A stretch of 64,000 nt of DNA from Candidatus Shapirobacteria bacterium (lineage in GTDB: Bacteria; Patescibacteriota; Microgenomatia; UBA12405), in contig JBAZTV010000003.1 of NCBI GenBank assembly GCA_041661765.1, forward strand, positions 1,064 to 65,063, written 5' to 3'. Shown here piece by piece: positions 1,912 to 56,095 of the stretch. The notes beneath the pieces are model-generated. The model was given only the letters and a program-made list of their open reading frames with translations, was not told the DNA's origin and did no database searches. Made by a program: the position numbers and the translations under genes. Each line of letters starts with the position of its first letter. The stretch's first letter is position 1.

Positions 1912-1971
1912 CTACGATAAATATATATAAATAGATAGGTAAAGTAAAGACCTCTAAAAAAATTACTGTTT

Positions 1972-2930: not shown

Positions 2931-3393
2931 AAATTAATCCTGATTCATCAATTTTAATATTTTTAGTTGCACCCACACCATTAATAATAATACTAGCCGT
3001 TCCACCAATTGATCTACCATCAGTAACACTAAATCTAATTATTCCTGTTCCGCCTGGGCCATAAAAAGTTACTCCCACTCCTTTTGGAGTAATATCTTTT
3101 GAAAAAATGGTTTCAATATAAGAAATATCATCTTCCTTGTAAGATTCCATTTCCATCAATCCATCACTATTAATTTTTACGAATAATCTGTTTCCATCGC
3201 CCGTAAATTGATTAGTAGCAGCATAATTTCTGGCAAATCTCAAATTAGATATTAACTCTTGTCTAGTCGATTCTACTTTTTGATTTTCAAAAAAATTATT
3301 CAAAGACACTGTACCAAAACCCACCACCAACATCCCAATCGTTATTGCTATCAATAATTCAATTAAAGTAAAACCAAAACTATTTTTTTTCAT
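2920..3393 (-). CDS. Minor pilin/pseudopilin (GspH/FimT-like; leader MKKNSFG|FTLIELL)
   Basis: Canonical prepilin cleavage motif with Glu+5. Confidence 0.65.
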   Translation of the reverse strand: MKKNSFGFTLIELLIAITIGMLVVGFGTVSLNNFFENQKVESTRQELISNLRFARNYAATNQFTGDGNRLFVKINSDGLMEMESYKEDDISYIETIFSKDITPKGVGVTFYGPGGTGIIRFSVTDGRSIGGTASIIINGVGATKNIKIDESGLIYEK

Positions 3394-3798
3394 TTACGGA
3401 TTAGTCACAGTATAATCACCAGTTTCTTCTAAAGTTGCAGTAATAGTATAAGTATAACCCGAATGGGTATAATCATAATCTTGATTAGTTTTCGGATCCT
3501 TAGGCAAATTTTGAAGATAACTAGGAACTAAAGATGACGAAAGCGCCGGATAAGAAGTCCCCACATTTTGTCTATACAATTCCAACGCTATTCTTATTTT
3601 TTCCAAATCAGCCATTCTTCTATTATCCCTAGCTTTTTTGCTGGTTCCACTATAACTAACCATTCCTACTACAGTTAATACTGCAATTATCGTTACCGTC
3701 ACAATCAACTCAATCAAAGTAAAGCCTGAATTACCTTCCTTTTTAAGGGAGGTCCTTGAACGAAGTGAAAGGGGTGGGTTTGTTCCTTGATTTTTCAT
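3394..3798 (-). CDS. Pilin/pseudopilin (GspG-like) with an elongated 25-aa leader peptide that is encoded by an inserted G-rich repeat element
   Basis: Leader ...PPLSLRSRTSLKKEGNSG|FTLIELIV; KARDNRR..DL motif typical of GspG/PilA N-domains. Confidence 0.65.
   Translation of the reverse strand: MKNQGTNPPLSLRSRTSLKKEGNSGFTLIELIVTVTIIAVLTVVGMVSYSGTSKKARDNRRMADLEKIRIALELYRQNVGTSYPALSSSLVPSYLQNLPKDPKTNQDYDYTHSGYTYTITATLEETGDYTVTNP
3745..3781 (+). repeat. G-rich hairpin element copy R1 (AAGGGAGGT-ccttgaacgaagtgaaagg-GGTGGGTTT)
   Basis: Shares AAGGGAGG...GGGTTT flanks and an internal hairpin with 8 other copies; lies in the prepilin leader coding region. Confidence 0.7.
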
Positions 3799-3808
3799 AT
3801 CTTTTAAA

Positions 3809-3845
3809 CCCTCCTTTCCTCAAGGGAGGGTAGGGTGGGTTTTTA
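3809..3845 (+). repeat. Degenerate G-rich element copy R2 (CCCTCC-loop-GGGAGGG tagGGTGGGTTTTT). On the minus strand it reads as a stem-loop plus T-run, a terminator-like structure downstream of pilin 3843..4292
   Basis: Stem CCCTCC/GGGAGG followed by GGGTTTTT. Confidence 0.5.
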
Positions 3846-4292
3846 TTGTTGATTTTTTACACAAAAATAACCTTTTGGAGACACGTTAAATTGACAACTA
3901 ACATTAGCATTAGAATTAGCACTATTTTCCATTGCAACACAAATACAATATCCACTTGCGTTACAATCAGTAGCACAACTATAATCTTCACCTTTAGGAC
4001 CACTTGGATAACTCTCTAAAACAACAACACCACTAGCCGGAGACCACTGATCCCCAGAACTATAAGTAGTTGGGTAAGAATACGCATTTTGAGAATAATA
4101 TTGTTCAGCTGCTGTCTGTATTAATTTTAAATCTTCTATTCTTCTTACATCTCTAGTTTTCTTCTGAGCTCCAGAATAAGCCACCGACACTATCGCCGTC
4201 AAAATTCCAATAATCGAAATCACTATCAACAACTCAAATAATGAAAACCCGATTTGCCAATATATATAATCTCTTTTTTTTTCAATACTCAT
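3843..4292 (-). CDS. Type IV pilin-like protein (leader ...YWQIG|FSLFELLIV), Cys-rich C-terminal domain
   Basis: Prepilin motif plus KKTRDVRR..DL N-domain signature. Confidence 0.6.
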   Translation of the reverse strand: MSIEKKRDYIYWQIGFSLFELLIVISIIGILTAIVSVAYSGAQKKTRDVRRIEDLKLIQTAAEQYYSQNAYSYPTTYSSGDQWSPASGVVVLESYPSGPKGEDYSCATDCNASGYCICVAMENSANSNANVSCQFNVSPKGYFCVKNQQ

Positions 4293-4849
4293 TATAATTT
4301 AGTCTCGTCAAAACCTGAAGTAAGAGCAGAATTAGGACTAGAAATACCATAACAATAGGTTACACTATTAGACACAAAAGCAGATTTACATTGAGAATCA
4401 CTTTTATTTTCCAAATTAGCAAAAAGATAGAAGGTTTTATTATCAGTCTTATGTCTATAAGAATATATATAAGGGTCCACATTTTTTGGATCTTTTGGCA
4501 TTTCCGCCATATAAACAATTCCTCCAGGACCAGTCAAACCAACACTACTTCCCAAAAAAGCATCTGAATTTAAATCCGGCAAAACTCCATTATCATTGTA
4601 ATACATAATCAAAGCTTTTGACAACGCATCTAACTCAGTTTTTCTTTGAGTATCCCGAGCTTTCTTTTGAGCCCCAGAAAAGGCCACCGCTCCAATCATT
4701 GTCAAAATTCCAATAATCGAAATCACCACCAATAATTCTACTAAAGTAAAACCAAAATTAAATCCTCCTTTTTTAAGGGAGGTCTTTGAACGAAGTGAAA
4801 AGAGTGGTTTTGTTCTTTGATTTTTATTTTTCATATTTTTAATTTCCAC
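4292..4849 (-). CDS. Type IV pilin-like protein with a ~25-30 aa leader (alternative start at 4834) that contains a repeat-element-encoded segment KPLFSLRSKTSLKKGG before G|FTLVELL
   Basis: Prepilin motif; AQKKARDTQRK..L signature. Confidence 0.65.
   Translation of the reverse strand: MEIKNMKNKNQRTKPLFSLRSKTSLKKGGFNFGFTLVELLVVISIIGILTMIGAVAFSGAQKKARDTQRKTELDALSKALIMYYNDNGVLPDLNSDAFLGSSVGLTGPGGIVYMAEMPKDPKNVDPYIYSYRHKTDNKTFYLFANLENKSDSQCKSAFVSNSVTYCYGISSPNSALTSGFDETKL
4775..4811 (+). repeat. G-rich hairpin element copy R3 (AAGGGAGGT-ctttgaacgaagtgaaaaga-GTGGTTTT)
   Basis: Near-identical to R1, with a compensatory stem change (CCTT/AAGG becomes TCTTT/AAAGA). Confidence 0.7.
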
Positions 4850-5291
4850 AAACCATAAAAACCTTATCTTCTGTTACACCAACACCACATTTCACCTGAG
4901 AATCAGTATCATCACTTCCAGCCCCAGTCTCCAAAGCCGCTTTTAACCTAAAAGTATCACCACTAGAATCCATATAAGCATAACTATAACCAATATTTTC
5001 CATCGACGGCATATAAGTTTTACCAACTGATTCATTTAAACAAGTAGAGTTATAAACACCAACTTCATCATCACAACCCGTAGTCGGATAAGACTGATTA
5101 TCATTATAATACATTCTCAACGCAGATTTAATCGAATTCAAATCCTGAATTTTTTGAGCATCTTTAGCTCTCTCTCTCATCCCCATAAAATTCACCACCA
5201 AAACAGCTGTCAAAATTCCAATAATCGAAATCACCACCAATAATTCAATTAAACTAAAACCACTATTATTTTGTTGTTTCATTTGTTTCAT
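4839..5291 (-). CDS. Type IV pilin-like protein (start MKQMKQQNNSG|FSLIELLVV); the ORF-track N-terminal extension is probably not translated
   Basis: Prepilin motif at internal Met 85 of the listed ORF; ERAKDAQK..DL signature. Confidence 0.6.
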   Translation of the reverse strand: MKQMKQQNNSGFSLIELLVVISIIGILTAVLVVNFMGMRERAKDAQKIQDLNSIKSALRMYYNDNQSYPTTGCDDEVGVYNSTCLNESVGKTYMPSMENIGYSYAYMDSSGDTFRLKAALETGAGSDDTDSQVKCGVGVTEDKVFMVCGN

Positions 5292-5718
5292 TAACGTTAT
5301 TAATATCAGTATAACAATATTTAATTCCATTGCACAAGTATTTATTTTCTTTACAATCAGTGTCATTTTTATTTTCAAATTCAGCAGACATTTTAAAAGA
5401 AACACCATCACTTCCAATCTCATAACAATATTCTTTATCTCCATGTTTTTCCCTTGGCACTGAATTTGCATATGTATAACCATTATCAACAAAACTCTTT
5501 CCCCAAAGACTATTAACCAATTCATTACTCGGCAACTTTCCATAATCAGTAAAATAAAGTTTAATTACTTTAGAAAATTCATTCAAATCAGATCTCCTTT
5601 GTAAATCTCTAGATTTTGCCTGGGCTAAATCAAATTGTTTACAAGTTATAAAAGACAAAATTCCAACCACTGTCACTATTATTAATAATTCCAAACAAGT
5701 CTTTTTTTTCATAAACAC
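5266..5718 (-). CDS. Pilin-like protein with an atypical N-terminus (MFMKKKTCLELLIIVTVVG; no canonical Gly-Phe cleavage site)
   Basis: Hydrophobic N-helix plus AKSRDLQRRSDL N-domain signature. Confidence 0.45.
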   Translation of the reverse strand: MFMKKKTCLELLIIVTVVGILSFITCKQFDLAQAKSRDLQRRSDLNEFSKVIKLYFTDYGKLPSNELVNSLWGKSFVDNGYTYANSVPREKHGDKEYCYEIGSDGVSFKMSAEFENKNDTDCKENKYLCNGIKYCYTDINNVNETNETTK

Positions 5719-6407
5719 TCATCACCACAACAACTAACTTGACATTTACTTAAACAATCACCGCTATCAATTGACACATAAAAACAATTATCACCACTAC
5801 AACCACCACTTCTACTTTCACAACTACCACCCACACTACCTACTAAACAGGAACTAGTATCACAATCTGGATTTATATAATTCTCATACCATACAATGTT
5901 TGGACTCGACACCCCATAGTTAACTTTATTTTTAGTTATACCAGTTAAAAGTATATCTGTTCGTATATACCAATCTTTCGGAATGTCATCATCTTCCTTG
6001 TTTTCTAAATTAGTCATCACCCTAAATTTATTTGTTTCCGCAATTACCATATAAGGATTTCCGTCTGGATCACACGGCCACGGAGACAAATATTGGGAAA
6101 AATTAATACTATTACTATGACAATTTGATTTTATATTCCAATTACTAATATCTTGCGGATAATATCCCTTATCATTAAAATATTCCTCAAAAGCCTGTTT
6201 AATTCTATTTAGATCTTTTTTCCTCTGCGAATCTCTACTCTTATTCACCGGATTAATCATCACAAAAGCTCCAATCATTATTATCGCTATCATAATAACA
6301 ATTGTCATTACTATTAAAATTTCCACCAAAGTAAAACCTAAATTACGTCGCCCTATCAAGGGAGATGTCCCGACTTGTCGGGACAGAGGGTTTATTCCTT
6401 TTTTCAT
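5709..6407 (-). CDS. Type IV pilin-like protein; true start is probably the ATG at 6407 (MKKGINPLSRQVGTSPLIGRRNLG|FTLVEIL). The 24-aa leader is encoded by repeat copy R4; very Cys-rich C-terminus
   Basis: Prepilin motif; start overlaps the pilD stop (TAATG); leader region coincides with the repeat element. Confidence 0.6.
   Translation of the reverse strand: MKKGINPLSRQVGTSPLIGRRNLGFTLVEILIVMTIVIMIAIIMIGAFVMINPVNKSRDSQRKKDLNRIKQAFEEYFNDKGYYPQDISNWNIKSNCHSNSINFSQYLSPWPCDPDGNPYMVIAETNKFRVMTNLENKEDDDIPKDWYIRTDILLTGITKNKVNYGVSSPNIVWYENYINPDCDTSSCLVGSVGGSCESRSGGCSGDNCFYVSIDSGDCLSKCQVSCCGDECL
6358..6393 (+). repeat. G-rich hairpin element copy R4 (AAGGGAGA-TGTCCCGACttGTCGGGACA-GAGGGTTTA)
   Basis: Perfect 9-bp hairpin between the conserved G-rich flanks. 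Confidence 0.75.
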
Positions 6408-7237
6408 TACTGTATTAATTTTACAATTAAATCTCCCCACCACCAAGCCACCAAAATTCCTAAAATCATAAACGGACCAAAAGGGACTTGTGTTTTCCTA
6501 TCCGCTTTTTTAAAAATCATCAATATTAACCCCAAAATTGCCCCAACAACAAAAGCCACATAAAAGGCTATTATCGTTTTAGGATATCCTAAAAACAATC
6601 CCATAAACAAAGCCAACTTAACATCTCCCATCCCCATTCCACTACCTTTAGTTATCAAATTTAAAATTAATAAAAACCCACTAGCCACCAACGCTGATAG
6701 TATTTGTTGTAAGGGCAGACCGATGTGTCTGCCCCACATATCGCCCAGCAGAAAAACAATTGCACATCCAATTAAAATTACTGTCGAAAAATCCGGCAAA
6801 ATCATATATTTTAAATCAAATACCGCACTAAAAACCAAGAAAACAATAATCAAAAAACCTAAAATTAACTGTAGTAGAGACGTTGCATGCAACGTCTCTA
6901 CGAAATTAAACCTAAAAACTAAAAAAAACAATACAAATAAAATCCCCATAACTAATTCCACAACAGGGTAGGAGAGTGGTAATTTTTTATAGCAACATTT
7001 TGTTTTACCTTTTAAAATCAACCAAGAAATCACTGGCACATTTTCATACCAATTCAATTGTCTACCACAATAATCACAAAACGATCTTTTCTCATTTATG
7101 TAGGGGCTAACCCTTGTGTCCGCCCTTTTAATTTTTAAAATTTTATAATTTACAGCCGTCCTATAAACCAACATATTCACAAAACTCCCAAAACATAAAC
7201 CCAAAACAAAAATAATAATTCCAATTAACATTTCCAT
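6407..7237 (-). CDS. pilD: Prepilin peptidase (A24 family, PilD-like) with an in-frame REP-like palindrome insertion
   Basis: N-terminal CDYCGRQ...C..KCC zinc-binding motif, multiple TM helices, GMGDVKL motif; insertion encodes VETLHATSLLQ. Confidence 0.8.
   Translation of the reverse strand: MEMLIGIIIFVLGLCFGSFVNMLVYRTAVNYKILKIKRADTRVSPYINEKRSFCDYCGRQLNWYENVPVISWLILKGKTKCCYKKLPLSYPVVELVMGILFVLFFLVFRFNFVETLHATSLLQLILGFLIIVFLVFSAVFDLKYMILPDFSTVILIGCAIVFLLGDMWGRHIGLPLQQILSALVASGFLLILNLITKGSGMGMGDVKLALFMGLFLGYPKTIIAFYVAFVVGAILGLILMIFKKADRKTQVPFGPFMILGILVAWWWGDLIVKLIQ
6874..6901 (+). repeat. REP-like palindrome GTAGAGACG-ttgcatgcaa-CGTCTCTAC, in frame inside pilD
   Basis: Perfect 9-bp stem with terminal GTAG/CTAC; same family as 15872, 33299, 41917, 41995, 63605. 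Confidence 0.8.
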
Positions 7238-7276
7238 ATCTCATTCTAACAAAAATTAAAGGCTTCTCCCTTTTTT

Positions 7277-7315
7277 AAGGGGAGATGTCCCGATTTATCG
7301 GGACAGAGAGGTTTT
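7277..7315 (+). repeat. G-rich hairpin element copy R5 (AAGGGGAGA-TGTCCCGATttATCGGGACA-GAGAGGTTTT), intergenic between pilD and pilA
   Basis: Same as R4 but with a compensatory C/G to T/A change that keeps the stem. Confidence 0.75.
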
Positions 7316-7323
7316 CTCCAATC

Positions 7324-7349
7324 AAAAACCCCGCCATCAAGCGGGGTTT
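7324..7349 (-). terminator. Rho-independent terminator hairpin AAACCCCGC-catcaa-GCGGGGTTT downstream of the major pilin gene (palindromic, could act bidirectionally)
   Basis: 9-bp GC-rich stem; T-run follows on the minus strand. Confidence 0.6.
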
Positions 7350-7371
7350 AAAGTTTATTCTTAATTCTTTA

Positions 7372-8088
7372 TTAAGGAACACATTTAAACAAAGATGTTG
7401 CAACAGTTTCAAAATCCCATGGAGATACAGGATAACCAGTAGTTTGGTCAAACACTGCAGCATCAGTATTAATAACTCTAGTTAAAGAAGTTACATTTGC
7501 ACCAGTCATAGTAGGTTTATAAAGTACAGTATCAACTGTACCAGCTCTATTTGCTTTTGCCTTCGGGATATAACAAACAAGAACTGAATTACCCTCCGCA
7601 GTCCCAAGCTTATTAATAACCAAATAATTAGTTCCATCATCAACAAATTTGGGATCAGCACTAGAAAGTGAAGTATATCCCTTAATCAAAAATGAATCTT
7701 TTAACTCATCCTTTACTACTAAAGCCCCCCGTTGATTATAACTACTACACAAAGAAGTAGGAGTTTGTAAAAGAGGGTCAATGCTATTAGTAGAACATAA
7801 ACCAGCTCCCACCATATTACTAGATCCAACCCATGCAGTATCAGCAGAAGCGACCGCACCACTATTAGTGTCCATCCAAGGATAAGTAAATTTAACAGTA
7901 TAATACCTTTCATAAGCATTCATAACTTCAGCTGCATCATTCTGTGCAGTCGCATCCTTCGCCTTATTCGATTGTTCAATTGGATTAATAGTCGCCAACA
8001 CAGCCACCGACAAAATTGCAATCAACGCTATAACAATTAAAAGTTCCACTAAGGTAAAACCTCTCATTTTACTTATCTTATTTTTCAT
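7372..8088 (-). CDS. pilA: Major type IV pilin (PilA-like), leader MKNKISKMRG|FTLVELLIV
   Basis: Canonical prepilin motif; largest pilin; followed by its own terminator; immediately downstream of pilC. Confidence 0.7.
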   Translation of the reverse strand: MKNKISKMRGFTLVELLIVIALIAILSVAVLATINPIEQSNKAKDATAQNDAAEVMNAYERYYTVKFTYPWMDTNSGAVASADTAWVGSSNMVGAGLCSTNSIDPLLQTPTSLCSSYNQRGALVVKDELKDSFLIKGYTSLSSADPKFVDDGTNYLVINKLGTAEGNSVLVCYIPKAKANRAGTVDTVLYKPTMTGANVTSLTRVINTDAAVFDQTTGYPVSPWDFETVATSLFKCVP

Positions 8089-8166
8089 TTATTTTAATAA
8101 ATATTTAATTCTATTTAATTCATTATTCACCACTAAAATTACGATGTCAAGTTGTTGTTTTTTAAA

Positions 8167-9378
8167 TTACATACTCGATGTCAAATTATAGATTGGCATC
8201 AAAACCGCCACCACTAAAAAAGCCACACCTATCCCCAACAAAATCATAATTATCGGCTCAATTGCTGAAGTCAATGATTTAACCGATTGTTCCGCCTCAG
8301 CCGAAAAATAATCTGATACTTTTAAAAGTACACTATCTAATTTTCCCGTTGCTTCGCCTGTCGCCACCATCTGGTTTACAATTACCGGAAAAACTCCTGT
8401 TTCTTCAAAAGAATTCGCAATCGAAAAACCTTTTTGAACTCTTTCAGATATTTTTAAATACGCCCCTCTAAAAAGTTCATTTGCCGACACACTTGAAACA
8501 ATTCTTAAAGCATCAACTAAAGAAATTCCTGCCGATAAAAGCATTGACAAAGTCCTAATAGTATCTGCCAAAACAGTTTTTTGGCTTAAGGGTCCGATAA
8601 TTGGAATTTTTAATTTATAAATATCCACCTTTAATCTAAACTTAGCATTTCTATCTCCAATCTTAAAAAGTACAAAAAAACCAAAAATTAAAAATGGAAT
8701 TAAAAACCAAAATTTAACTATAAAATCAGATGTTGCCATTAAGGCTTGGGTTGATGCTGGCATTTTTGCATCAAAATCCTCATACAAAGACATCATTTTT
8801 GGAATCACAAAAATCATCATTATAATAACCACAATAATCATACCTACAACCACAATTGCCGGATAAATCATTGCTCCTTTAACCTTACCGGAAAATTCAT
8901 TTTGTTTTTCCAAATTATCAGCTAATTTAACCAATACTTCCTCCAAAACCCCACCTTCTTCACCAGCTTCAATCGAAGCAATATATGCCTCACCAAAATT
9001 TTTTTTATACCTTCCTAAACCATCTGCCAAAGTATGCCCTCCTTGAACCGTTGCCAAAGTATATTCCAAAATTTCAAACATCAAGCTTTTTTTATCAGAT
9101 TGACTTTTCAAAAGCGATAAAGCATCGGTTAAAACTAGACCAGAAGTCATCATTGTTGATAACTGTCTAGTAAAATTAGTAATTTGTTTCAAATTAATTT
9201 TTGAAAAAATCTTTTTATACATCTCATTTATAATCGAAGTACTTTCAACAACTACCGACAATGGTACTAACCCTCCACCTTTTATTGATTCCACAGCTGA
9301 ATTCTTGTCTTGCGATTCCAAAAACCCCTTAATTGTTTTTCCATTCCAATCTTTAGCTTTATAAAAAAATTTCGTCAT
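8167..9378 (-). CDS. pilC: Type IV pilus platform protein PilC (GspF family)
   Basis: 403 aa; duplicated GspF domain; three TM segments. Confidence 0.8.
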   Translation of the reverse strand: MTKFFYKAKDWNGKTIKGFLESQDKNSAVESIKGGGLVPLSVVVESTSIINEMYKKIFSKINLKQITNFTRQLSTMMTSGLVLTDALSLLKSQSDKKSLMFEILEYTLATVQGGHTLADGLGRYKKNFGEAYIASIEAGEEGGVLEEVLVKLADNLEKQNEFSGKVKGAMIYPAIVVVGMIIVVIIMMIFVIPKMMSLYEDFDAKMPASTQALMATSDFIVKFWFLIPFLIFGFFVLFKIGDRNAKFRLKVDIYKLKIPIIGPLSQKTVLADTIRTLSMLLSAGISLVDALRIVSSVSANELFRGAYLKISERVQKGFSIANSFEETGVFPVIVNQMVATGEATGKLDSVLLKVSDYFSAEAEQSVKSLTSAIEPIIMILLGIGVAFLVVAVLMPIYNLTSSM

Positions 9379-10442
9379 ATTTTTTGACGTCCTAATTTAC
9401 CCTGTAGTTCAATTGCATTATTTGCATAAGTCATGGCCACTTCTTCCGAAACTTTTCCTTCCAAGACCAATTTAGCCATATATGCATCAAAACTTATCAT
9501 CCCAATATCAGCACCAGTCTGAATAATATTATCAATCATAAAAGATTTTCCTTCCCTTATTACATTTCGAACCGCCGGTGTGGCAATTAAAATTTCAAAA
9601 ACAGGAATTCTACCACCAGCAATTGCTGGCACTAATCTTTGAGAAACAATTGCTGTAATTACTGTTGCCAACTGAACTCTGATCTGATCCTTTGATCCAA
9701 TTGGAAAAACATCCACAATCCTATCAATTGTCTGTGCCGCTGAATTTGTATGTAAAACCGAAAAAACTAAATGTCCTGTTTCAGCAATCGTTAAAGCCGA
9801 AGACGTCGATTCTAAATCCCTCATTTCACCTAAAAACACCACATTTGGATCCTGCCTTAAACAAGACCTTAATGCTAAACCAAAACTATTTGTGTCTCCC
9901 CCCATTTCTCTTTGTGAAATTATCGCTTTTTCTGGCTTAATTAAATACTCAACCGGATCCTCAATCGTCACAATATGCCCACCCTTAGTCCTATTAATTT
10001 CCTCCAGTATTGCCGCCACTGTCGTTGATTTACCATGTCCAGTTGGACCAGTAACTAATATAAAACCTTGTTTATATTTAATAAAATCTCTTAAAATACT
10101 TGGAATACTTAATTCCTCAAAATCAGGTATTTTTGAAGAAATTAACCTCAAAGCACAAGCAGGGTCACCTTTTTGTAAATAAACATTCGCCCTAAAACGA
10201 ACCCCAACTGCCTCAAATGAAAAATCCAATTCTTTTTCTTTTTTAAAAATTTCTAATTGTTCCTCATTTAAAAGCGATAAAACCATTTCCATTATTTCTT
10301 TATTCGTTGTTTTTTCAAAACCAAACACATTTAAAAGCTCTCCATCAACCCTAATTTTTGGAGATACGTCTGAAATTAAATGAACATCCGAAGCCTTATA
10401 ATCAACTGCATATTTTAAAATTTCCTCCATTTTTATGTTCAT
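9375..10442 (-). CDS. pilT: Type IV pilus retraction ATPase PilT
   Basis: 355 aa; Walker A GPTGHGKST; PilT/GspE family architecture. Confidence 0.75.
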   Translation of the reverse strand: MNIKMEEILKYAVDYKASDVHLISDVSPKIRVDGELLNVFGFEKTTNKEIMEMVLSLLNEEQLEIFKKEKELDFSFEAVGVRFRANVYLQKGDPACALRLISSKIPDFEELSIPSILRDFIKYKQGFILVTGPTGHGKSTTVAAILEEINRTKGGHIVTIEDPVEYLIKPEKAIISQREMGGDTNSFGLALRSCLRQDPNVVFLGEMRDLESTSSALTIAETGHLVFSVLHTNSAAQTIDRIVDVFPIGSKDQIRVQLATVITAIVSQRLVPAIAGGRIPVFEILIATPAVRNVIREGKSFMIDNIIQTGADIGMISFDAYMAKLVLEGKVSEEVAMTYANNAIELQGKLGRQKI

Positions 10443-10460
10443 ACTTTTGTTTTTAATTTT

Positions 10461-12200
10461 TTAATATTGAGCAACTCTAATAACTTCATCCATACTTGTC
10501 ACTCCTTCTAAAACCTTTACATATCCATCTTCTTTCATTGATAACATTCCTTCTTCCATCGCCAATCTCTGGATATCTGAAGCCGACGCTTTACCAACTA
10601 TTAACTTACTTATTTTTTCACTAATCGGCATCACCTCATAAATAGCAATTCTTCCTAAATATCCAGTATTATTACATTTTTCACAACCAACAATTTTAGG
10701 CAACATCATTTTCTTTCCTTCTTTTTTAAATTTATCCTCAATCATATTATAAATAGGACCCAAAGTTTTTTTAAGTTCTTCTAATTTATCTGGCGGTATT
10801 TCCATTTCACTTACACAAGTTTTACAAACTTTTCTTAAAACTCTTTGCCCCACCACACAATTCAAAGACGATACTAATAAAAACGGCTCCGCTCCCATAT
10901 CTAAAAGTCTTGGAGGCACACCTGAAGCGTCATTAGTATGTAGTGTTGAAAAAACTAAATGACCAGTCAAGGCAGCATTAATAGCCAAATCTGCCGTTTC
11001 TGAATCACGAATTTCTCCCACCATAATTATGTTAGGATCTTGACGTAAAAATGATCTCAACGCCGAAGCAAAAGTCAAACCAGCCTGGACATTCACCTGA
11101 ACCTGATTTACACCTTTCATTTGATATTCCACTGGATCCTCAACTGTCACCACATTAACCTTCGATGTTGCCACAATATCTAAAATCGAATATAAAGTTG
11201 TTGTTTTACCAGATCCAGTTGGACCACAAATAATAATAATTCCATGAGGTCTCTGAATCGCATTCATTAAATTTTTTAAAGCCAATCCTCTCAGCCCCAA
11301 ATCTTGCAATGTTGGCACTTTTTGAGATTTTTTAAGTAAACGCATAACCACTTTTTCACCGTAAGTTGTCGGTAAGGTTGATATACGTAAATCAACATCA
11401 TTACCATCAGTCGTAAAGAAAAATCTTCCGTCTTGAGGTATTCTTTTTTCATCAATTTTTAAACCAGACAAAATTTTAATTCTTGATATTACCGCGTCAT
11501 GAACGTTTCTTGGTAATAAATATTTTTCCTGCAAAATTCCGTCAATTCTATACCTAATCCTAACACTATCTTCCTGTGGTTCAATATGAACATCAGAAGC
11601 TCTTGATTTAACAGCGTATTCCAAAATTGTTGTTACTATTTTCGATACTGGTGCTTCTACTGTCACTTTTTCTTCAGCTAATTTCATTATTTTTTCTTCA
11701 TCTTTTCTTTCATCCAAAGCCCTTGTCACCTCTGAAGTAATATTTTTCTCCCTGATATATTTTTCTTTAACGAAAGAAACAATCTGTTTTTCCAAAGCAA
11801 TTGCAACACCCACTTTTAAACCCGTTTTCTTTTCTAAAAATTCAATAGTCTCCAAATCTAACGGATTAACCATGGCCACTGACAAAATCTTATTCTTTGT
11901 ATCTAGATTATAGGGGACTATTTTATATTTTCGGGCCACACTCTCTGGTACCAAAGTTAAAGCTTCTGGTGAAAATCCAATCGTTTCTAAATCGACAAAT
12001 GGTACTCTTAAAAAATCCGCTTTCGCCTTAATAAAATCTACATCTGAAACAAATCTCAACGCCTTAATTACTTCTTCTTCTGTCTCTCCAGTTTTTAACT
12101 GTCTCAACTTAATTTCCTCTACCTTTTCTTGATTAATTAATCCTTTTTCCAAAAGGACTCCCTTTAAATTCTTATATATTTTTGAGGCAAAATCATTCAT
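10461..12200 (-). CDS. pilB: Type IV pilus assembly ATPase PilB (GspE family)
   Basis: 579 aa; N-terminal GspE_N domain; Walker A GPTGSGKTTT; tetracysteine CKTC...CEKC. Confidence 0.8.
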   Translation of the reverse strand: MNDFASKIYKNLKGVLLEKGLINQEKVEEIKLRQLKTGETEEEVIKALRFVSDVDFIKAKADFLRVPFVDLETIGFSPEALTLVPESVARKYKIVPYNLDTKNKILSVAMVNPLDLETIEFLEKKTGLKVGVAIALEKQIVSFVKEKYIREKNITSEVTRALDERKDEEKIMKLAEEKVTVEAPVSKIVTTILEYAVKSRASDVHIEPQEDSVRIRYRIDGILQEKYLLPRNVHDAVISRIKILSGLKIDEKRIPQDGRFFFTTDGNDVDLRISTLPTTYGEKVVMRLLKKSQKVPTLQDLGLRGLALKNLMNAIQRPHGIIIICGPTGSGKTTTLYSILDIVATSKVNVVTVEDPVEYQMKGVNQVQVNVQAGLTFASALRSFLRQDPNIIMVGEIRDSETADLAINAALTGHLVFSTLHTNDASGVPPRLLDMGAEPFLLVSSLNCVVGQRVLRKVCKTCVSEMEIPPDKLEELKKTLGPIYNMIEDKFKKEGKKMMLPKIVGCEKCNNTGYLGRIAIYEVMPISEKISKLIVGKASASDIQRLAMEEGMLSMKEDGYVKVLEGVTSMDEVIRVAQY

Positions 12201-24633: not shown

Positions 24634-25611
24634 AAAAGAAAAAACATTCTTACCAACGTCTTCATGGTAACCACCTTCTTGAACAATTACTGTTGGGCAA
24701 TTTAAAGATTCTATTTCTTTAGCCATATTTTGGTAATAATCATTTGTTAATTTAAAATCACCCAACAAGTCTTTTTTGTAGGTATCCAATCCTAAACTTA
24801 TAACTAAATATTTCGGGCCAAAAATTTTAATTTTTTCTAGAGCTTTTTTTAAAGCTTTAGAATAATCATTATCATTAGCACCCGAAGATAAAATTATATT
24901 TAAATTTTTATTTTCACCTAAACCCACACCAATTTCATCTTCAAAACCCCAATAATAAGGAAATTTATTTCGTGGATCTGCATGAATGGAAACAGTTAAA
25001 ACATCACCTCTATCATAAAAAATATCTTGCGTTCCGTTACCATGATGATAATCAATATCCAAAACAGCTACCGTTCCTAATTTTGACAAATATTGAGCTG
25101 CAATCGCTGCATTATTTAAATAACAAAAACCTCCCATTAAAGATTTCATTGCATGATGTCCTGATGGTCTAGTCAAAGCATAAACTATTTTATTTCCATC
25201 AACTACTTTTTTTGCTGCAGTATAAGCAACAGCCGCACTAGACAAAATACTAGTAAAAATATTTTTAGAAACCGGAGTATAGATATCTAAGCTAAATCTC
25301 CCTAATTTAGGTAAAAAACTCGATAACTCACGTTTTTTATCATGCCAAAAATCAGTCGGAAAATGATATGCCTCATCAATAATTGATTTATCTAAATCTC
25401 CCAAAAAATCCACATAATCTGAATCATGGATTTCTTTAATAAATTCTGTTTCTAAATTTTCCGGACCAAATTCAACACCTATATTTTTTTTCTTTAACTC
25501 ACTTAATATATTGTCTATTCTTTTAACTTGATCAAAATGTTCCTCATTCCATAATAAAACTGGACTATATTTTTTATTTTCCAAACTGTAAATAATTGGA
25601 ATTTTATTCAT
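24613..25611 (-). CDS. Histone deacetylase-family amidohydrolase (HDAC/AcuC/acetylpolyamine amidohydrolase-like)
   Basis: VLDIDYHHGNGTQDIFY matches the HDAC zinc-site motif. Confidence 0.75.
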   Translation of the reverse strand: MNKIPIIYSLENKKYSPVLLWNEEHFDQVKRIDNILSELKKKNIGVEFGPENLETEFIKEIHDSDYVDFLGDLDKSIIDEAYHFPTDFWHDKKRELSSFLPKLGRFSLDIYTPVSKNIFTSILSSAAVAYTAAKKVVDGNKIVYALTRPSGHHAMKSLMGGFCYLNNAAIAAQYLSKLGTVAVLDIDYHHGNGTQDIFYDRGDVLTVSIHADPRNKFPYYWGFEDEIGVGLGENKNLNIILSSGANDNDYSKALKKALEKIKIFGPKYLVISLGLDTYKKDLLGDFKLTNDYYQNMAKEIESLNCPTVIVQEGGYHEDVGKNVFSFLSGFLT

Positions 25612-26620
25612 TACTACTATTTAAAATAGTAATAACTCTTAAATCTTGAATACTTTTTAAGTCAGCCAAAATCATAGCCAACCTATCCATTCCAATAGCG
25701 ATTCCTGCACATTTTGGTAATTTTTGTAAAATATCTATAAAATTATAATCTGGTTCTATTTTAATCATCTTTGTTTTTTCTCTAATTTGAATATCTTCTT
25801 CAAATCTTCTTCTATGTTCCTCTATATTAGTTTTTTCAGTGGAAGCATTACCGCAATTTCCCAATTCAATTCCCTCTATGTAAAATTCTAATCTTTCAGC
25901 AATGTTTTTTTCTTTATTATATTGAGCCGTAGCTGCTAATTCTCGTGGATATTCGTAAATAAAAGTCACTAAACCATCTTTTCCTAAATTTGGCTCCACT
26001 TCAATTCCGTAAATCTGAGACCAAACATCAGTATAATCCATTCCTTCAGTTCGATAACCTTTTTCCTTTGCTTGTCCAAAAAAAATCTTATGATTAAAAA
26101 TATCAGTTATTCCGGCATATTTTTTAAAAGCCTCAGCCACAGTAATTTTTTCATAAGTATTTAAGTTTATTTTTTTACCCTGATACTCCAATTCATTTTT
26201 ATTAAACATTTTTTTGGCCATAAACCTCAACATTTCCATCACATCTTCGATAATATCGAAATAATCACCATTTACCCGATAAAATTCCAACATTGTAAAT
26301 TCATAGGAATGTTTTTTTTCGACCGGCTCATTATTTCTAAAAGATTTTCCCAAAAAATAACAATTACCAATTCCTCCAACTATTAATCTTTTTAAAAACA
26401 ATTCTGGCGACGGAATTAGATACATTTCCTGTTTATCTTTATTAAATAAATTTTTAGTTTCAAAAATTTCCAAATAAGACTCTGGTATTAGTTTAGGTGA
26501 GAGTAGGGGAGTATCGATTTCTTCAAAATCATTTTTTTGCAAAAAAACACTTGCCAATCCTTTTATTTTCAAAAAAATCTGATGGTTTTTTAAATTATCA
26601 ATTTTACATTCAATTTCCAT
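25604..26620 (-). CDS. Class II aminoacyl-tRNA synthetase catalytic-core paralog, EpmA/PoxA-like (EF-P lysyl transferase) or AsnA-like; no anticodon-binding domain
   Basis: Motif 2 FRNEP...EFTMLEFY and motif 3 GIAIGMDRL; 338 aa. Confidence 0.55.
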   Translation of the reverse strand: MEIECKIDNLKNHQIFLKIKGLASVFLQKNDFEEIDTPLLSPKLIPESYLEIFETKNLFNKDKQEMYLIPSPELFLKRLIVGGIGNCYFLGKSFRNNEPVEKKHSYEFTMLEFYRVNGDYFDIIEDVMEMLRFMAKKMFNKNELEYQGKKINLNTYEKITVAEAFKKYAGITDIFNHKIFFGQAKEKGYRTEGMDYTDVWSQIYGIEVEPNLGKDGLVTFIYEYPRELAATAQYNKEKNIAERLEFYIEGIELGNCGNASTEKTNIEEHRRRFEEDIQIREKTKMIKIEPDYNFIDILQKLPKCAGIAIGMDRLAMILADLKSIQDLRVITILNSSNE

Positions 26621-41635: not shown

Positions 41636-41681
41636 CTTGAAAGTAAATCTATTATCTCACAACCAAAGCTATTTTTTAAGT

Positions 41682-41700
41682 TGTAGAGACCCCCTGTGGG
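41682..41700 (+). repeat. Partial REP (GTAGAGAC + CCCCtgtGGGG hairpin) at the 3' end of the RAYT gene
   Basis: Shares the GTAGAGAC head with the other REPs. Confidence 0.5.
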
Positions 41701-41916
41701 GCAATTTATAAAATTTATCTTTTTGCCAATTAATAGGATTATTGATTATATAATTTTTGATCATTAATAGTTCTTTTTCATCTTTAATGATTTGATCGTG
41801 GAAACGAGGTTGCCAAGCAAACCAAAGATTTTGATGGTTACAAATTGATTTTACTGAAGCTTTAAATAATTTTATAACTCTAGGAATAATCTGATTGGAT
41901 TTAATATTAATTTTTT

Positions 41917-41942
41917 GTAGAGACGCATTGAATGCGTCTCTT
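41917..41942 (+). repeat. REP-like palindrome GTAGAGACGCATT-ga-AATGCGTCTCT inside the RAYT gene
   Basis: 11-bp perfect stem, GTAG head. Confidence 0.8.
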
Positions 41943-41994
41943 GTATTATTATTTGTATTTTGTGTTGAATTATTGTTTGTATCCTGTGTTAGAC

Positions 41995-42019
41995 AGAGAC
42001 GCACACAGTGCGTCTCTAC
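41995..42019 (-). repeat. REP-like palindrome AGAGACGCAC-aca-GTGCGTCTCTAC (GTAG head on the minus strand), inverted relative to 41917; the two form a BIME-like doublet
   Basis: 10-bp perfect stem, CTAC tail on plus. Confidence 0.8.
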
Positions 42020-42350
42020 ATTTGTGTTAAGTGGTTGGTTTTTAATTTGAATTAATATATGCACATGGTTTGGCATAATTACCCATTCATGTAATTTAAT
42101 ATTTTTTCTTATTTTAAATGTTTTTAATAATTCAGATTTAGTAAAAATCACCACGTTTAGATAATTTCATTTTATTATCAATAATTTTTCCAAAAAAATT
42201 ATTATGGTTGTAAGTGCAGATGGTGATGAAATAATATCCAGGGGTGGAATAATTCCAATTTTGAAGACGAGAATATTTTAATTTAAATTTGTCGGCAAAT
42301 TTGGTTGGATTATCGACCACACATTATTGTAACAATTTTTACAAAATAAA

Positions 42351-51209: not shown

Positions 51210-51249
51210 GCCGCCCTGTCAAGGGAGGTGCCCGAAGGGCGGAGGGTTT
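51210..51249 (+). repeat. G-rich element copy R8 (CCGCCCTgtcaAGGGAGGTGCCCgaaGGGCGGAGGGTTT) between hisS and the HAD gene; its GGAGGG tail sits 5 nt before the HAD ATG, so it may act as an RBS
   Basis: Near-identical to R7. Confidence 0.75.
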
Positions 51250-51251
51250 AT

Positions 51252-51845
51252 ATGATAAAAGTAATAATCTTTGACGTCGGTGGAGTTTATCTAAAAGGTA
51301 GTTTTATTGATTTTATAAACAAATCGCGAAAACTGCTTGGCATTGATAAAAAATTTTACACCGACAAAGAAATAATTTTTGATAAAGATTTTAATCGAGG
51401 AAAAATTTCAGCCGAAATTTGTTTTCAAAATTATTTTAGTGTTCCTATTTCTGATTCTCAAATGAAACAAATTATCAAAATCTGGACCACCACTTGGAAA
51501 CCAACTCTCTCAATGAAAAATTTAATTATCAAATTAAAGAAGAATTATCGATTAGCCATTCTTTCAAATTCTGATCCTCTCAATTCACCTAATTATTATA
51601 AAAAAGGTTTGTATCAATATTTTGATCCAATAATTTTATCCCATGAATTGGGAATTTTAAAACCAGATAAGAAAATTTATGAAATTACTATTAAAAAACT
51701 AAAAGTTAAATCAAATGAATGTATTTTTATTGATGATCAAGAAGATAATTTAAAACCAGCCAAAGATATGGGTATGACCACAATTTTATTCAAATCTCCT
51801 CTTCAATTAAAACAAGATTTAAAAAAACTTTTTATTAAACTTTAA
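51252..51845 (+). CDS. HAD-superfamily hydrolase (start at ATG 51252; the ORF-track N-extension is element-derived)
   Basis: Motif I IIFDVGGV; motif IV DD near the C-terminus. Confidence 0.65.
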   Translation: MIKVIIFDVGGVYLKGSFIDFINKSRKLLGIDKKFYTDKEIIFDKDFNRGKISAEICFQNYFSVPISDSQMKQIIKIWTTTWKPTLSMKNLIIKLKKNYRLAILSNSDPLNSPNYYKKGLYQYFDPIILSHELGILKPDKKIYEITIKKLKVKSNECIFIDDQEDNLKPAKDMGMTTILFKSPLQLKQDLKKLFIKL

Positions 51846-51852
51846 AATTAAA

Positions 51853-52092
51853 ATGACAGAAAAATTATCTAACAATATTTGTATTTGTTGTCTTCCGTTA
51901 AATTCTAACCCTCTATTAAAACAATTTATTAATGATGGAAAATTAAAATGTTCTTCAACTGTTTTTTGTGATCAAAGGATTCCTTTTACTTTTGATGAAA
52001 TAAACAACCAAGATATTGATTGTGTTGGTCCAAATAATCCAGATTGTCCCAAAAAACCTCTAGAAAACAAAAGTTATAAAAATTTGTTATAA
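51853..52092 (+). CDS. Small Cys-rich hypothetical protein
   Basis: 79 aa with CICC and multiple Cys pairs. Confidence 0.35.
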
Positions 52093-52100
52093 TATACCCT

Positions 52101-52358
52101 ATGAAACAAGGAATTCATCCTAAATATTTTGACGATTGCCAAGTTAATTGTGCTTGCGGCAATAAATTTACCACTGGCTCAACTTTAGAAAAAATTGACG
52201 TTGAAGTTTGTTCTAAATGTCATCCATTCTTTACTGGTCAACAAAAATTCGTTGACATCAAAGGAAGAATTGATAAATTTAACGAAAAGGTTAGTCAAGG
52301 TAAAAAATACGCTGCTGCTAAAGCTACTATTAAAAAAGCCGTCAAAAAATCAAACTAG
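52101..52358 (+). CDS. rpmE: 50S ribosomal protein L31
   Basis: MKQGIHPKY...C.C....CSKCHPF signature. Confidence 0.85.
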
Positions 52359-52425
52359 TTACTTTAAAAACCGTTTAAATTTTATAATTTGACGGTTTTT
52401 ATTTTATTAAAAATTTTAAATATCT

Positions 52426-53154
52426 ATGCCTACAATTAACCCCAACATTGCCATTATGGAATTTCACCCAGGTCCGGGAGGTCAAGAAGCGTCTTTATGG
52501 GCCCAAGATTTAATGAATATGTACATTCGCTACGCCGGAAAAGTTAATTGGAAAGTTAGCCAACTTGATGGTTTTATTATTCAAATTTCCGGTTTTGATG
52601 CTTATAACCAATTAAAATACGAAGCCGGCACTCATCGTGTCCAAAGAATTCCTATTACCGAAAAACGCGGTCGTCTTCAAACATCAACCGCCTCAATTGC
52701 AATTATGCCTAAAATTGATTCCAAAGAAGTTAATTTTAGAATGGAAGATGTCACCATCACCGCTTGTCGTGCCGGTGGTAACGGTGGACAGAATGTTAAT
52801 AAAGTATCTACAGCAGTCCATTTAGTTCACAAACCAACCGGTTTAATGTTTGACGTTAGAACCGAAAGATATCAACAACAAAACAGAGAAATCGCTCTTG
52901 AACTTCTTAAAAATAAACTTTGGCAAATTGAAGAGGAAAAACGTGCCTCTCAAGTTTCGGCTGGCCGAGCAAACATTAGTCAATCAACTAGAGCTGATAA
53001 AATTCGAACATATAATTACCCCAGAAATCAAATAAAAGACCATCGCATCGACAAATCTTTCAACAACTTAGACTCCATTGTGCAGGGCAATTTGGACGAT
53101 TTACTACTCGAACTCACCATCCTCGACCAACCAGAAACCGCCACAAAAGATTAA
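52426..53154 (+). CDS. Class I peptide chain release factor, RF1-type (PIT tripeptide), lacking N-terminal domain 1
   Basis: GGQ motif ([12 protein letters not shown]); [10 protein letters not shown] aligns to the RF1 PxT region; an in-frame upstream stop (TAA 52417-52419) precludes extension. Confidence 0.7.
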
Positions 53155-53899
53155 ACCTCATTCTTTCAAAATTAGTAATCTCTTGATCCTCAATTACCAC
53201 TCCAGTAAATCTTCCTTTTTTAAAAGATATAAACGCTACTTTATTATCCCAAAGCATATAATCAGTATCTGTACTATTTTCTCTTGGTATTGAAATTATT
53301 GTATTTAGTTTTGTTGAATATTTCTTTATATATTCTAAATCCCATTTAGAATCAGTTACAATTTCATTCGTTTCTATTCCCTTTTGAATTAATCTTTTTT
53401 CATAATTATCAATAAATTTTTCAAATTCAGAGTTAATAATTTGAGTCAAACAAAAAACCAAAATCTGCTTTGCTTCTAATGTTTCATTATAAATTTGTTT
53501 AATTGATTCCAAACCCTCATAAAATCTAACCTTAGAATTCAAATCAACAGTAGAATATAGTTTAATTTGAGGTAAAAATTCTTTGGCCAAATTAAACGCA
53601 TTTTCCGACTTTTCTTTTTCCTCTTTCAATAGATCAATTAATTTATCTGGATTTTGAGCCACTAAACTCCTTTTTTTTCCAAAGGGTGTCTCCATTACTA
53701 AACCCAAAAATTTTAGTCTTTCTAAAATTAGATAACAAGTACTTCTTGCCACCCCTATATTTTTCGAGATCTGATTAATAGTTGTCTTCCCATTAACCAA
53801 ACAATTTAAGTAAAAATCAGCCGATTTATCGTCTAATTTTAAATATTGAAAAACTGTTTTCAGTTCACTTTTAATCTTATCTTTTTCTATCATGACCAA
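53114..53899 (-). CDS. TrmB-like transcriptional regulator (N-terminal winged HTH)
   Basis: wHTH segment [22 protein letters not shown]; about 260 aa. Confidence 0.45.
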
Positions 53900-53996: not shown

Positions 53997-54773
53997 ATGA
54001 TAGAAATACAAAATTCAGATAGAAATGTCGCTTTTGCCGCGTACAAAATCGCTTTAAAAGAAGAAAGTCCACATGAAATTAATGGACAAAAATATCTAGC
54101 TAAACCACTAGAGTCAAGTGTTTTTATAAAAAAAATAAATAATTTATTATCAAATCCATCTGATCCATACACTACAATAGAAGAAAGTTTAAAATTCACT
54201 GCCAACAACTCAGAAACTTTTTGTGGCCTTAGCCCTGAAAATTATTACAAAAATAAAGAAGAACAAGAATCCATCATCAATGGAGCTGTCAGCGAATTAA
54301 CACAAATGATGGCTGTTTTAATTGAAAATGATTATAAAAATATAGTTATTCCACAACAATTAAAGAAAATATTTAGTGAAATTAAAAAGCCCACAGCAGA
54401 AAACATTATCAAAGGCACCAGAAGAGGTATGAAAACCGCTGAAAAATGTCACGCTTGTGAACAAGTCGACCCTATGGTTGGAGCCATGGTTCACACCGCT
54501 TCAGGAATATTAACAAAAATTATTAAAACAGGTTCAAATTTTATTAATTCAAATCCTGACTTAGCCAATCTTTGGAAAGATACATATTTTGAAGGAAGTA
54601 TCTCTGAATTAAGCAGTCCAAAAACAACTGGTATTGTTGATGTCTTGATAGTAATAACTGAAAGAAATAAAGAAAAATTTCCCAATATGGATAAGTTTTT
54701 TAGTTCCAATCTTAAATTAGAAGGATTTGAAGGAACTTATTACGACATGGTCAACATACCCGAATATCAATAA
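53997..54773 (+). CDS. Hypothetical protein
   Basis: 258-aa ORF. Confidence 0.4.
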   Translation: MIEIQNSDRNVAFAAYKIALKEESPHEINGQKYLAKPLESSVFIKKINNLLSNPSDPYTTIEESLKFTANNSETFCGLSPENYYKNKEEQESIINGAVSELTQMMAVLIENDYKNIVIPQQLKKIFSEIKKPTAENIIKGTRRGMKTAEKCHACEQVDPMVGAMVHTASGILTKIIKTGSNFINSNPDLANLWKDTYFEGSISELSSPKTTGIVDVLIVITERNKEKFPNMDKFFSSNLKLEGFEGTYYDMVNIPEYQ

Positions 54774-54775
54774 AC

Positions 54776-55495
54776 ATGATTATTGATAAAAATAACTCCG
54801 AGAGAAAAAAATTAGTTGATTTAATTCAACCTGAAAATAAAATTATTTTAGAAATTGGTTGTGGTGACGGCACAATCGCTAAATATATTTCCCCTCTTTG
54901 TCAAAAATATATTGGTATTGATGTCAATAAAAATATTATAGCTAAAGCCAAAAAAAATAACAAAAATAAAAATCTAATTTTTAATCAAACTTCTAGTAAA
55001 AACATTAAATTCCCAAACAATTCATTTGATACCGTCTTAATGCATTTATGCTTTCATGAGATCGCTGTTCAAAAACAAGGTTTAGTACTACAAGAAATTA
55101 ATCGAGTTCTTAAAAAAGGTGGCCAATTACTAATAGTTGACCCAACTGAACCACCAGATCAGGTTCAACAAATATTCAATGTTGCTTATAAAAACTTTCA
55201 ATATTTTGATCATTCAACTGTTGTAAAACATTCCATGTGGTCAATTAAAGAATCTATTTTCAATAAATTATTCAAAATAAATAAATTATCAAGTTATAAA
55301 GTTGACTGGAAATTTAATGATTTTAAAGAATTAATCGATTTCGTTATTAGTTGTTCCAAAGAAATTGTTTGGGATAAAAATAAAAAACAATTTTTAGAAA
55401 AAGAATTAATTAAAATTGCCAAACCAAAAAATAAAACCAATGCCATTATTATTTACGACAGTTTAACCATTAATAATTTAATAAATTTAAAATAA
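54776..55495 (+). CDS. Class I SAM-dependent methyltransferase
   Basis: Motif I ILEIGCGDG; motif post-I/II. Confidence 0.7.
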   Translation: MIIDKNNSERKKLVDLIQPENKIILEIGCGDGTIAKYISPLCQKYIGIDVNKNIIAKAKKNNKNKNLIFNQTSSKNIKFPNNSFDTVLMHLCFHEIAVQKQGLVLQEINRVLKKGGQLLIVDPTEPPDQVQQIFNVAYKNFQYFDHSTVVKHSMWSIKESIFNKLFKINKLSSYKVDWKFNDFKELIDFVISCSKEIVWDKNKKQFLEKELIKIAKPKNKTNAIIIYDSLTINNLINLK

Positions 55496-56095
55496 ATGCC
55501 AGCCATAATTAATTTTAAAATCTGTGATAATTCTGATGAATGTGGCGGTTTAACTGTTTGCCCAACTAAAGCCATAACTTGGGATAATATTAAAAAAACT
55601 CTTATTATCGATGAAAACAAATGTACTAATTGCGGTTTATGTGTCAAGGCTTGTCCTATTGGTGCTATTAAAGTCGCTGCCGATGTTGATTTTGAATTTA
55701 TTAAACAAAAATTTAAAAATGATACTCGAAAAACTTCAGATCTTTTTATTGATCGTTACGGTGCCCAATCCACTAATAAGACTTCTTTAATTTCTTATGC
55801 TTATTTTCAATCAATAATTAATAAAAAAAATCCAATGGCTTTTGAAGTTTTTAATTCAACTTCTACGATGTGTTTAATTAATTCTATTCCCATCCGTGAA
55901 TTATTCAAAAAAAACATTTTATATAATCGAATCGATACTAAAACTGATAAAACTTTAATTAACGGATATAAAATTAAAGAGCTACCATGTCTATTATTTT
56001 TCGAAAATAGCCAATTTAAAGATAAAATTGAAGGCTATTTTAACACTACCCAAAAAGAAATTTTATTGGAAAAAATAAAAAAAATTGGTTTTTAA
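55496..56095 (+). CDS. 4Fe-4S ferredoxin-domain protein with a C-terminal thioredoxin-like region
   Basis: CTNCGLCVKACP cluster motif plus a second Cys group. Confidence 0.45.
   Translation: MPAIINFKICDNSDECGGLTVCPTKAITWDNIKKTLIIDENKCTNCGLCVKACPIGAIKVAADVDFEFIKQKFKNDTRKTSDLFIDRYGAQSTNKTSLISYAYFQSIINKKNPMAFEVFNSTSTMCLINSIPIRELFKKNILYNRIDTKTDKTLINGYKIKELPCLLFFENSQFKDKIEGYFNTTQKEILLEKIKKIGF

Follow-up and report, generated by a model that had tools for sequence, protein, structure and literature searches.

Here, we report that a 64-kb stretch of Candidatus Shapirobacteria DNA (the window, by which we mean all 64,000 nucleotides analysed) encodes a peptide chain release factor that consists of domains 2, 3, and 4 of RF1 and lacks domain 1. 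Judged by its sequence, the product of the ORF at 52426-53154 is an RF1. We consider it very probable that the gene is the ordinary prfA of Shapirobacteria (Microgenomates, Candidate Phyla Radiation [CPR]) from which the ∼105 residues of domain 1 have been deleted in place, and that its product terminates translation independently of RF3. To our knowledge, every textbook RF1 and RF2 contains domain 1, and we know of evidence for its dispensability only from engineered truncations in Escherichia coli. The Shapirobacteria protein thereby appears to be a natural minimal, tRNA-shaped version of a core translation factor.

A first-pass annotation of this DNA had described an ORF that combines the GGQ loop with an RF1-type PxT-like tripeptide (PIT), lacks domain 1, and begins near E. 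coli RF1 residue ∼110. Pfam, the prfA models, and the PDB alignments all bear out this description. Using Pfam, the PCRF family matched only with profile positions 101 to 194 of 194 (E = 2.4e-29), leaving positions 1 to 100 without a counterpart, and the RF-1 family matched in full (E = 1e-30). The two NCBIfam prfA models cover the protein from positions 106 to 343 of 347 and 114 to 351 of 361, with positions 1 to 105 and 1 to 113, respectively, unmatched, and the RF1 chains in the PDB align to it from residue 87 (T. maritima), ∼105 (T. thermophilus), and 111 (E. coli). In our alignment, in which the E. coli RF1 sequence serves as a guide to numbering only, the N-terminus MPTINPN lies opposite E. 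coli D104-P105-D106; because of this pairing, we place the start of the protein exactly at the boundary between domains 1 and 2. An AF2 model (pLDDT 81.6) superimposes on ribosome-bound RF1 with a TM score of 0.70 over 240 residues, the best fit being to RF1 of T. thermophilus and E. coli in the open form that it adopts on the ribosome.

The reading frame is closed directly before the start codon, the codons in frame ahead of the ATG being TAA-ATA-TCT, and the spacer between rpmE and the RF1 gene is 67 nt long (Table 1). The TAA 9 nt upstream, rpmE, and the hairpin-bearing spacer together leave no room for ∼100 extra N-terminal codons or a prfB-style frameshift, and the open frame upstream of the RF ORF spans only 0 to 25 codons across 70 related loci. 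We therefore rejected a longer N-terminus or a frameshift, in agreement with what the first-pass annotation had argued from the window.

Table 1. Positions of the short RF1 gene, its decoding and catalytic motifs, and its upstream elements in the window
Feature	Position	Strand	Remark
rpmE (bL31), upstream neighbour of the RF1 gene	52101..52358	+	Pfam Ribosomal_L31, E = 1.7e-29
Hairpin (52365-52401) followed by a U-rich tract, rpmE-RF1 spacer	52365..52409	+	Terminator-like
In-frame TAA closing the frame 9 nt before the ATG of the RF1 ORF	52417..52419	+	Read from the sequence
prfA ortholog (RF1 domains 2, 3, and 4; domain 1 absent)	52426..53154	+	242 aa
Tip of helix α5, G16-P-G-G-Q-E21 (E. coli G118-E123)	52471..52488	+	Reads the first stop-codon base
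PxT tripeptide anticodon, P76-I77-T78	52651..52659	+	P and T invariant in 120 of 120 homologs
Gln85, equivalent to His197 of E. coli RF1 (His193 in T. thermophilus)	52678..52680	+	
Catalytic GGQ of domain 3, G120-G121-Q122	52783..52791	+	Invariant

The identity of the protein as RF1 follows from profile scores and structural matches. The prfA models scored 266.7 bits (NF001859) and 262 bits (TIGR00019), compared with 190.8 bits for prfB (TIGR00020), 63 bits for PrfH (TIGR03072), and 43 bits for ArfB (NF006718). The prfA scores stay below the curated equivalog cut-offs of 400 and 423.25 bits, respectively, only because ∼105 profile positions have nothing to match. Similarly, RF1 chains in the PDB were matched with E = 1e-60 versus 1e-38 for RF2, and an assignment to prfB is countered by the tripeptide, which is PIT with no SPF, and by a TIGR00020 cut-off of 370 bits.

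The roles of the α5 tip, the PxT tripeptide, and the Gln and Thr residues in reading the stop codon are those that we take from published RF1-ribosome structures. In the α5 tip, G16, P17, G18, G19, and E21 are invariant among 62 aligned members of the clade and kept in 119 of 120 sequences; the N-terminal "GGQ" within PGPGGQEA is part of this tip (GTGGDE in E. coli) and not the catalytic loop. The middle residue of the PxT tripeptide is V, I, E, A, L, S, or T among the 120 homologs, all of which have Q73 and T86, the equivalents of Q185 and T198, as well as the equivalents of Glu191 and Arg195. The catalytic GGQ sits within an invariant block of 11 residues. Based on these residues, the protein is predicted to be specific for UAA and UAG. 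The position of His197, which is reportedly important in E. coli RF1, is occupied by Gln in 94 and by His in 26 of the 120 clade sequences, whereas 118 of 125 other RF1 representatives have His there. Because 78% of the clade has Gln at this position, RF1 activity is not to be assumed, and we treat release activity as a prediction.

Over the shared part, the window protein is 37 to 39% identical to the RF1 proteins of E. coli, T. thermophilus, and T. maritima, and it shares with canonical RF1 (PrfA; TIGR00019/NF001859) domains 2 to 4, the PxT tripeptide, the G..E pattern of the α5 tip, the Q185/T198 equivalents, the GGQ, and the length of the switch loop. It differs from canonical RF1 in the missing ∼105 residues of domain 1, in the exchange of His197 for Gln in most of the clade, and in domain 4, where the clade has NYPRNQ[IV]KDHR rather than NFPQGRVTDHR.

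The first-pass annotation had proposed checking whether other genomes of the lineage share the truncation, and they do. Among 5.8 billion proteins searched, we found 120 clusters that are 65 to 92% identical to the query and all 226 to 251 aa long, several of them with the names Candidatus Shapirobacteria or Patescibacteria; the label given by NCBI to relatives of the short RF1 is "peptide chain release factor-like protein." When species-representative genomes were scanned, they yielded the 70 related loci, mostly from Shapirobacteria metagenome-assembled genomes (MAGs), and at ∼60 of these loci, representing ∼60 Shapirobacteria species genomes, the RF ORF has 231 to 253 aa. A separate gene call on an 823,611-bp JGI contig gave an RF1 of 236 aa in the same gene context. 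An alignment of 62 members with 64 to 91% identity to the window protein has 75 invariant columns, all decoding and catalytic residues among them, arguing that the gene is under purifying selection.

Some records met in these searches are irregular. The loci L001, L005, L006, L008 to L011, and others come from MAGs titled "uncultured Gammaproteobacteria," "Pseudomonadales," and, in one case, "Candidatus Methanoperedens" and carry L31-RF1 loci of the Shapirobacteria type at 83 to 95% identity; evidently, these titles are wrong. Three protein entries (P0121, P0126, and P0218) are RF1s of 477 and 481 aa that contain an internal tandem duplication and a chimera of RF2 and RF1 with 376 aa; all are most likely assembly artefacts.

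The gene lies at the orthologous position of prfA. An L31 homolog directly precedes the RF gene in 68 of the 70 loci, and the gene order is HisRS-L31-RF-(variable insert)-HtrA-CtpA, with HisRS, L31, HtrA, and CtpA present in 59, 68, 66, and 61 of the 70 loci, respectively. This order includes a Woesebacteria-labelled MAG (L067) with an RF1 of 231 aa, and its L31-RF-HtrA-CtpA part is present in Cerribacteria (L062), the RF1 of which has 306 aa. The rpmE-prfA position is common to L062 and L064 to L066, with RF1s of 306 to 318 aa.

All recovered Microgenomates RF1s that are related to the window protein have a shortened domain 1 or none; they come from Amesbacteria, the Woesebacteria-labelled MAG, and Cerribacteria. 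In a library of representatives at 50% identity, the nearest clusters have 232 to 256 aa (no domain 1) and 303 or 331 aa (partial domain 1), and release factors of 350 to 366 aa rank only after these short and partial clusters; an annotated Candidatus Amesbacteria RF1 of 256 aa is among the short representatives. In a rough neighbour-joining (NJ) tree, which as a distance tree is not to be over-read, the Shapirobacteria clade groups with RF1s that have 15 to 85 residues ahead of the α5-tip motif, compared with ∼115 to 125 in ordinary RF1s. One short representative (P0125; 232 aa) falls among full-length RF1s, outside the short group. On the simplest reading of these comparisons, domain 1 would have been eroded stepwise and in place in Microgenomates, with the loss complete in Shapirobacteria.

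Three other explanations of the short gene have to be weighed against that of a prfA with an in-place deletion. The gene could be an artefact of a misassigned start codon or of faulty assembly, or it could be a decaying pseudogene, and databases do contain contig-end RF1 fragments besides the duplicated and chimeric release factors described above. However, the recurrence of an identical architecture in 120 clusters and in ∼60 independent species genomes, with contigs as long as 823 kb, speaks against an artefact, as do the in-frame stop and rpmE just upstream, while the strong purifying selection on RF1 speaks against a pseudogene, making this explanation hardly conceivable. It is also highly unlikely that domain 1 is supplied in trans, i.e., that a separate small protein makes the contact to the L11 stalk or RF3. 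Gene splitting is known in reduced genomes, and the DNA examined for this comprised 64 kb and the 12-kb flanks of relatives; however, tblastn with domain 1 of five related or reference RF1s was blank in the window and in ∼60 Shapirobacteria loci, while the same searches do find the partial domain 1 in L062 and L065, and no conserved unannotated ORF lies beside the RF1 gene. More generally, no gene is conserved specifically beside the short RF1 in the 70 loci.

The remaining alternative is that the gene is an extra, specialised paralog, i.e., a PrfH- or ArfB-like rescue factor or a non-canonical terminator, that exists beside a normal full-length prfA. ArfB (YaeJ, ICT1) has ∼140 aa and no codon-recognition domains, and its basic C-terminal tail probes the empty mRNA channel. 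It shares the homologous GGQ domain with the window protein, which, in contrast, has 242 aa with complete domains 2 and 4. PrfH (RFH), which is paired with RtcB2, is more similar in that it likewise lacks domain 1 (PMC1586002), has the GGQ, and is of similar size, and the search for a second prfA reached partial genomes of the lineage. Nevertheless, the suggestion of the first-pass annotation that the protein might be a PrfH-like rescue factor did not hold. Both rescue-factor models remain far below their cut-offs (63 versus 166.65 bits for PrfH and 43 versus 100 bits for ArfB, in contrast to 262 to 267 bits for prfA), the PrfH model covering only residues 99 to 198 and the ArfB model only residues 100 to 135. 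In PrfH, conserved residues of the decoding region differ from those of RF1 and RF2, and an rtcB-like gene is always located upstream in the same orientation (PMC1586002). In contrast, the window protein has the PxT tripeptide, its RF1 codon-reading residues are invariant, and its upstream neighbour is rpmE, in the position that it shares with partially truncated orthologs; no rtcB was found among the annotated window ORFs, in the 70 related loci, or in 20 kb of context on the 823-kb contig. Moreover, neither the 64-kb window nor ∼0.75 Mb of related loci contain a second release-factor homolog. Altogether, we regard a paralog as quite unlikely.

We suggest that the prfA product without domain 1 acts as a routine UAA/UAG terminator that binds to the ribosomal A site as a core of domains 2 to 4. 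Domains 2 and 4 would recognise UAA and UAG in the decoding centre using the α5 tip, the PxT tripeptide, and the Q185/T198 equivalents, and domain 3 would place the GGQ in the peptidyl-transferase centre, where peptidyl-tRNA would be hydrolysed. Because an RF1 without domain 1 can engage neither RF3 nor the L11 stalk in the usual way, it would have to dissociate from the ribosome on its own.

The closest functional model for this protein is an engineered E. coli RF1 truncation, reportedly the work of Mora, Zavialov, Ehrenberg, and Buckingham in 2003. According to the passage on domain 1 in PMC1586002, which summarises Mora et al. (2003), codon-specific release in vitro proceeds without domain 1, and a truncated RF1 is functional in vivo; the stimulation of nucleotide exchange on RF3, in contrast, depends on domain 1. 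By analogy with these experiments, the Shapirobacteria protein is best read as a canonical RF1 that would work without RF3. Like the engineered variant, it has domains 2 to 4 only; unlike that variant, which is an artificial deletion in a host with RF3, it is natural, fixed, and lineage-wide. RF3 was not found by Pfam annotation of ∼60 window ORFs, nor were RF2, PrmC, and RtcB. We presume that the lineage lacks RF3.

Of 191 bacterial genomes, 72 lack RF3, and most of these are small, with Bacillus, Mycoplasma, and Chlamydia among the RF3-less bacteria, and weaker binding of class-I release factors has been proposed as a compensation for its absence (PMC1780047). When E. coli lacks RF3, the dwell time on the ribosome at 20 °C is 66 s for RF1 compared with 38 s for RF2 (PMC10287982). 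The loss of domain 1 may weaken binding and quicken the departure of RF1. The RF1 proteins of many RF3-less bacteria, including Bacillus, Mycoplasma, and Chlamydia, are described as being of normal length; consequently, a missing RF3 is not by itself enough to account for the loss of domain 1.

The use of TAG, which ends 9 of 66 window ORFs and 113 of 630 ORFs in related loci, speaks for a need for RF1. TGA ends 8 of 66 window ORFs, including those for a pilT-type ATPase (Pfam T2SSE; 9375-10442) and an acyl-CoA synthetase, and, in the Shapirobacteria loci, 71 of 630 ORFs. Given this use of TGA, an RF2 activity should exist. We scanned metagenomes for RF2 using a designed alignment (A3), the sole conserved part of which is the RF2-specific SPF segment and the first row of which carries domain 3 of the Shapirobacteria RF1, such that matches are ranked by likeness to that domain. 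Among the matches listed, low-GC RF2 genes encode a domain 3 with a 28-residue signature of the window protein. Protein searches with the RF2 of locus L243 and a consensus/chimeric sequence as queries yielded 203 full-length Microgenomates RF2s, the named ones being from Roizmanbacteria, the "Microgenomates group," or Patescibacteria; by exact look-up, two further matches are from Beckwithbacteria and WS6. All 203 have kept domain 1, the SPF tripeptide, and RQTSF in one contiguous ORF (median 336 aa), and nearly all have the tip motif at residues 105 to 108. None of the 203 is named Shapirobacteria, and their flanking genes gave no link to the genomes with the short RF1. Going by these sequences, the combination of a truncated RF1 and an intact RF2 is supported at the level of Microgenomates as a group rather than of a single genome.

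The Microgenomates RF2s resemble the window protein in the domain 3 signature (GGQNVNKV[SA] and 19 further residues) and in having Gln at the His position, and they differ from it in having SPF instead of PxT and in retaining domain 1. The two domains 3 are identical at 37 to 45 of 68 positions, with no lineage-specific signal.

We also noted several features of the RF2 genes themselves. At L243:3548-4555 and in L198 and L202, RF2 is encoded by one ORF of ∼336 aa with no +1 frameshift site, and its N-terminal domain is ∼30 residues shorter than that of E. coli RF2. A domain 3 signature of 27 residues is common to Microgenomates RF2 and RF1. The RF2 equivalent of the His residue is Gln (RQTSF) in 203 of 203 Microgenomates RF2s (P0289 to P0500), and the exchange of His for Gln in both factors of Microgenomates may be a parallel change. 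On viral contigs, the DNA pattern HTSF...GGQNVNK detected only RF2-like genes of large IMG/VR contigs. Many of these contigs (86 to 570 kb; L071 to L079 and L080 to L196) encode RF2-like proteins with the atypical segment HRLIRNSPFN..ARHTSF, and the same large contigs also encode RF1-like proteins; one of them (L076) carries a 294-aa ORF with a shortened N-terminus.

Tentatively, we raise the possibility that termination in Microgenomates is asymmetric and free of RF3, with RF1 as a tRNA-sized core and RF2 with domain 1, and that the loss is adaptive rather than neutral erosion, although we lean against it. The loss of domain 1 would then lower the hold of RF1 on the post-termination ribosome, and recycling after UAG and UAA would proceed without RF3 or the L11 stalk. 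If RF2 of the same cells keeps domain 1, this would bear on the older idea that domain 1 is more important for RF2 than for RF1.

In the open-access literature on release factors, truncation, and prfC in CPR, Patescibacteria, and Microgenomates, we found no description of a CPR release factor without domain 1, and release factors go unmentioned in the papers that deal with CPR ribosomes and ribosome biogenesis. The short RF1 sequences are already public, annotated as "RF1" or "release factor-like protein," and the latter pipeline label could be misread as the absence of prfA. Given that the dispensability of domain 1 was known from laboratory truncations, the short RF1 is notable rather than shocking. 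Nevertheless, a lineage in which an RF1 without domain 1 is fixed represents a natural experiment, suggesting that core termination needs only domains 2 to 4. It also offers a test case for how class-I factors are recycled without RF3, a question left open in PMC1780047, and it adds one more reduction of the translation machinery in CPR to the described losses of ribosomal proteins and rRNA segments.

The hairpin in the rpmE-RF1 spacer has a predicted RNA fold of −13.2 kcal/mol (z = −3.2 versus shuffles). It was missed by a simple terminator scan because its stem has too few G-C pairs, and an Rfam search of the RF1 locus matched no family. Since this terminator-like hairpin precedes the RF gene, the latter may have its own transcription start. 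At the other end, the 3′ end of the RF1 gene overlaps by 41 nt with an ORF for a TrmB-like regulator (53114-53899, minus strand), which has a TGA stop codon. Together with the ORFs at 53997-56095, the regulator gene forms the insert between RF1 and HtrA, which few relatives share (e.g., L024). Upstream, HisRS and rpmE, which adjoin each other in relatives, are separated by an insertion (51228-52092) with an HAD hydrolase and a Cys-rich ORF of 79 aa; the Cys-rich ORF had no Pfam match and no homolog in the 70 related loci.

Farther away in the window, a type IV pilus cluster on the minus strand (724-12200) contains ∼9 pilin-like ORFs with the N-terminal methylation motif, together with genes for a prepilin peptidase, a PilC-like protein, and two secretion ATPases. 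A minus-strand ORF at 25604-26620 encodes a 338-aa protein consisting of the catalytic core of a class II (Asp/Lys/Asn-type) aminoacyl-tRNA synthetase without the anticodon-binding domain, which may be an EpmA/GenX- or AsnA-like enzyme. Finally, a 161-aa ORF on the minus strand (41669-42154), in which only residues 8 to 39 match the IS200-like Y1 transposase, is probably a transposase remnant.
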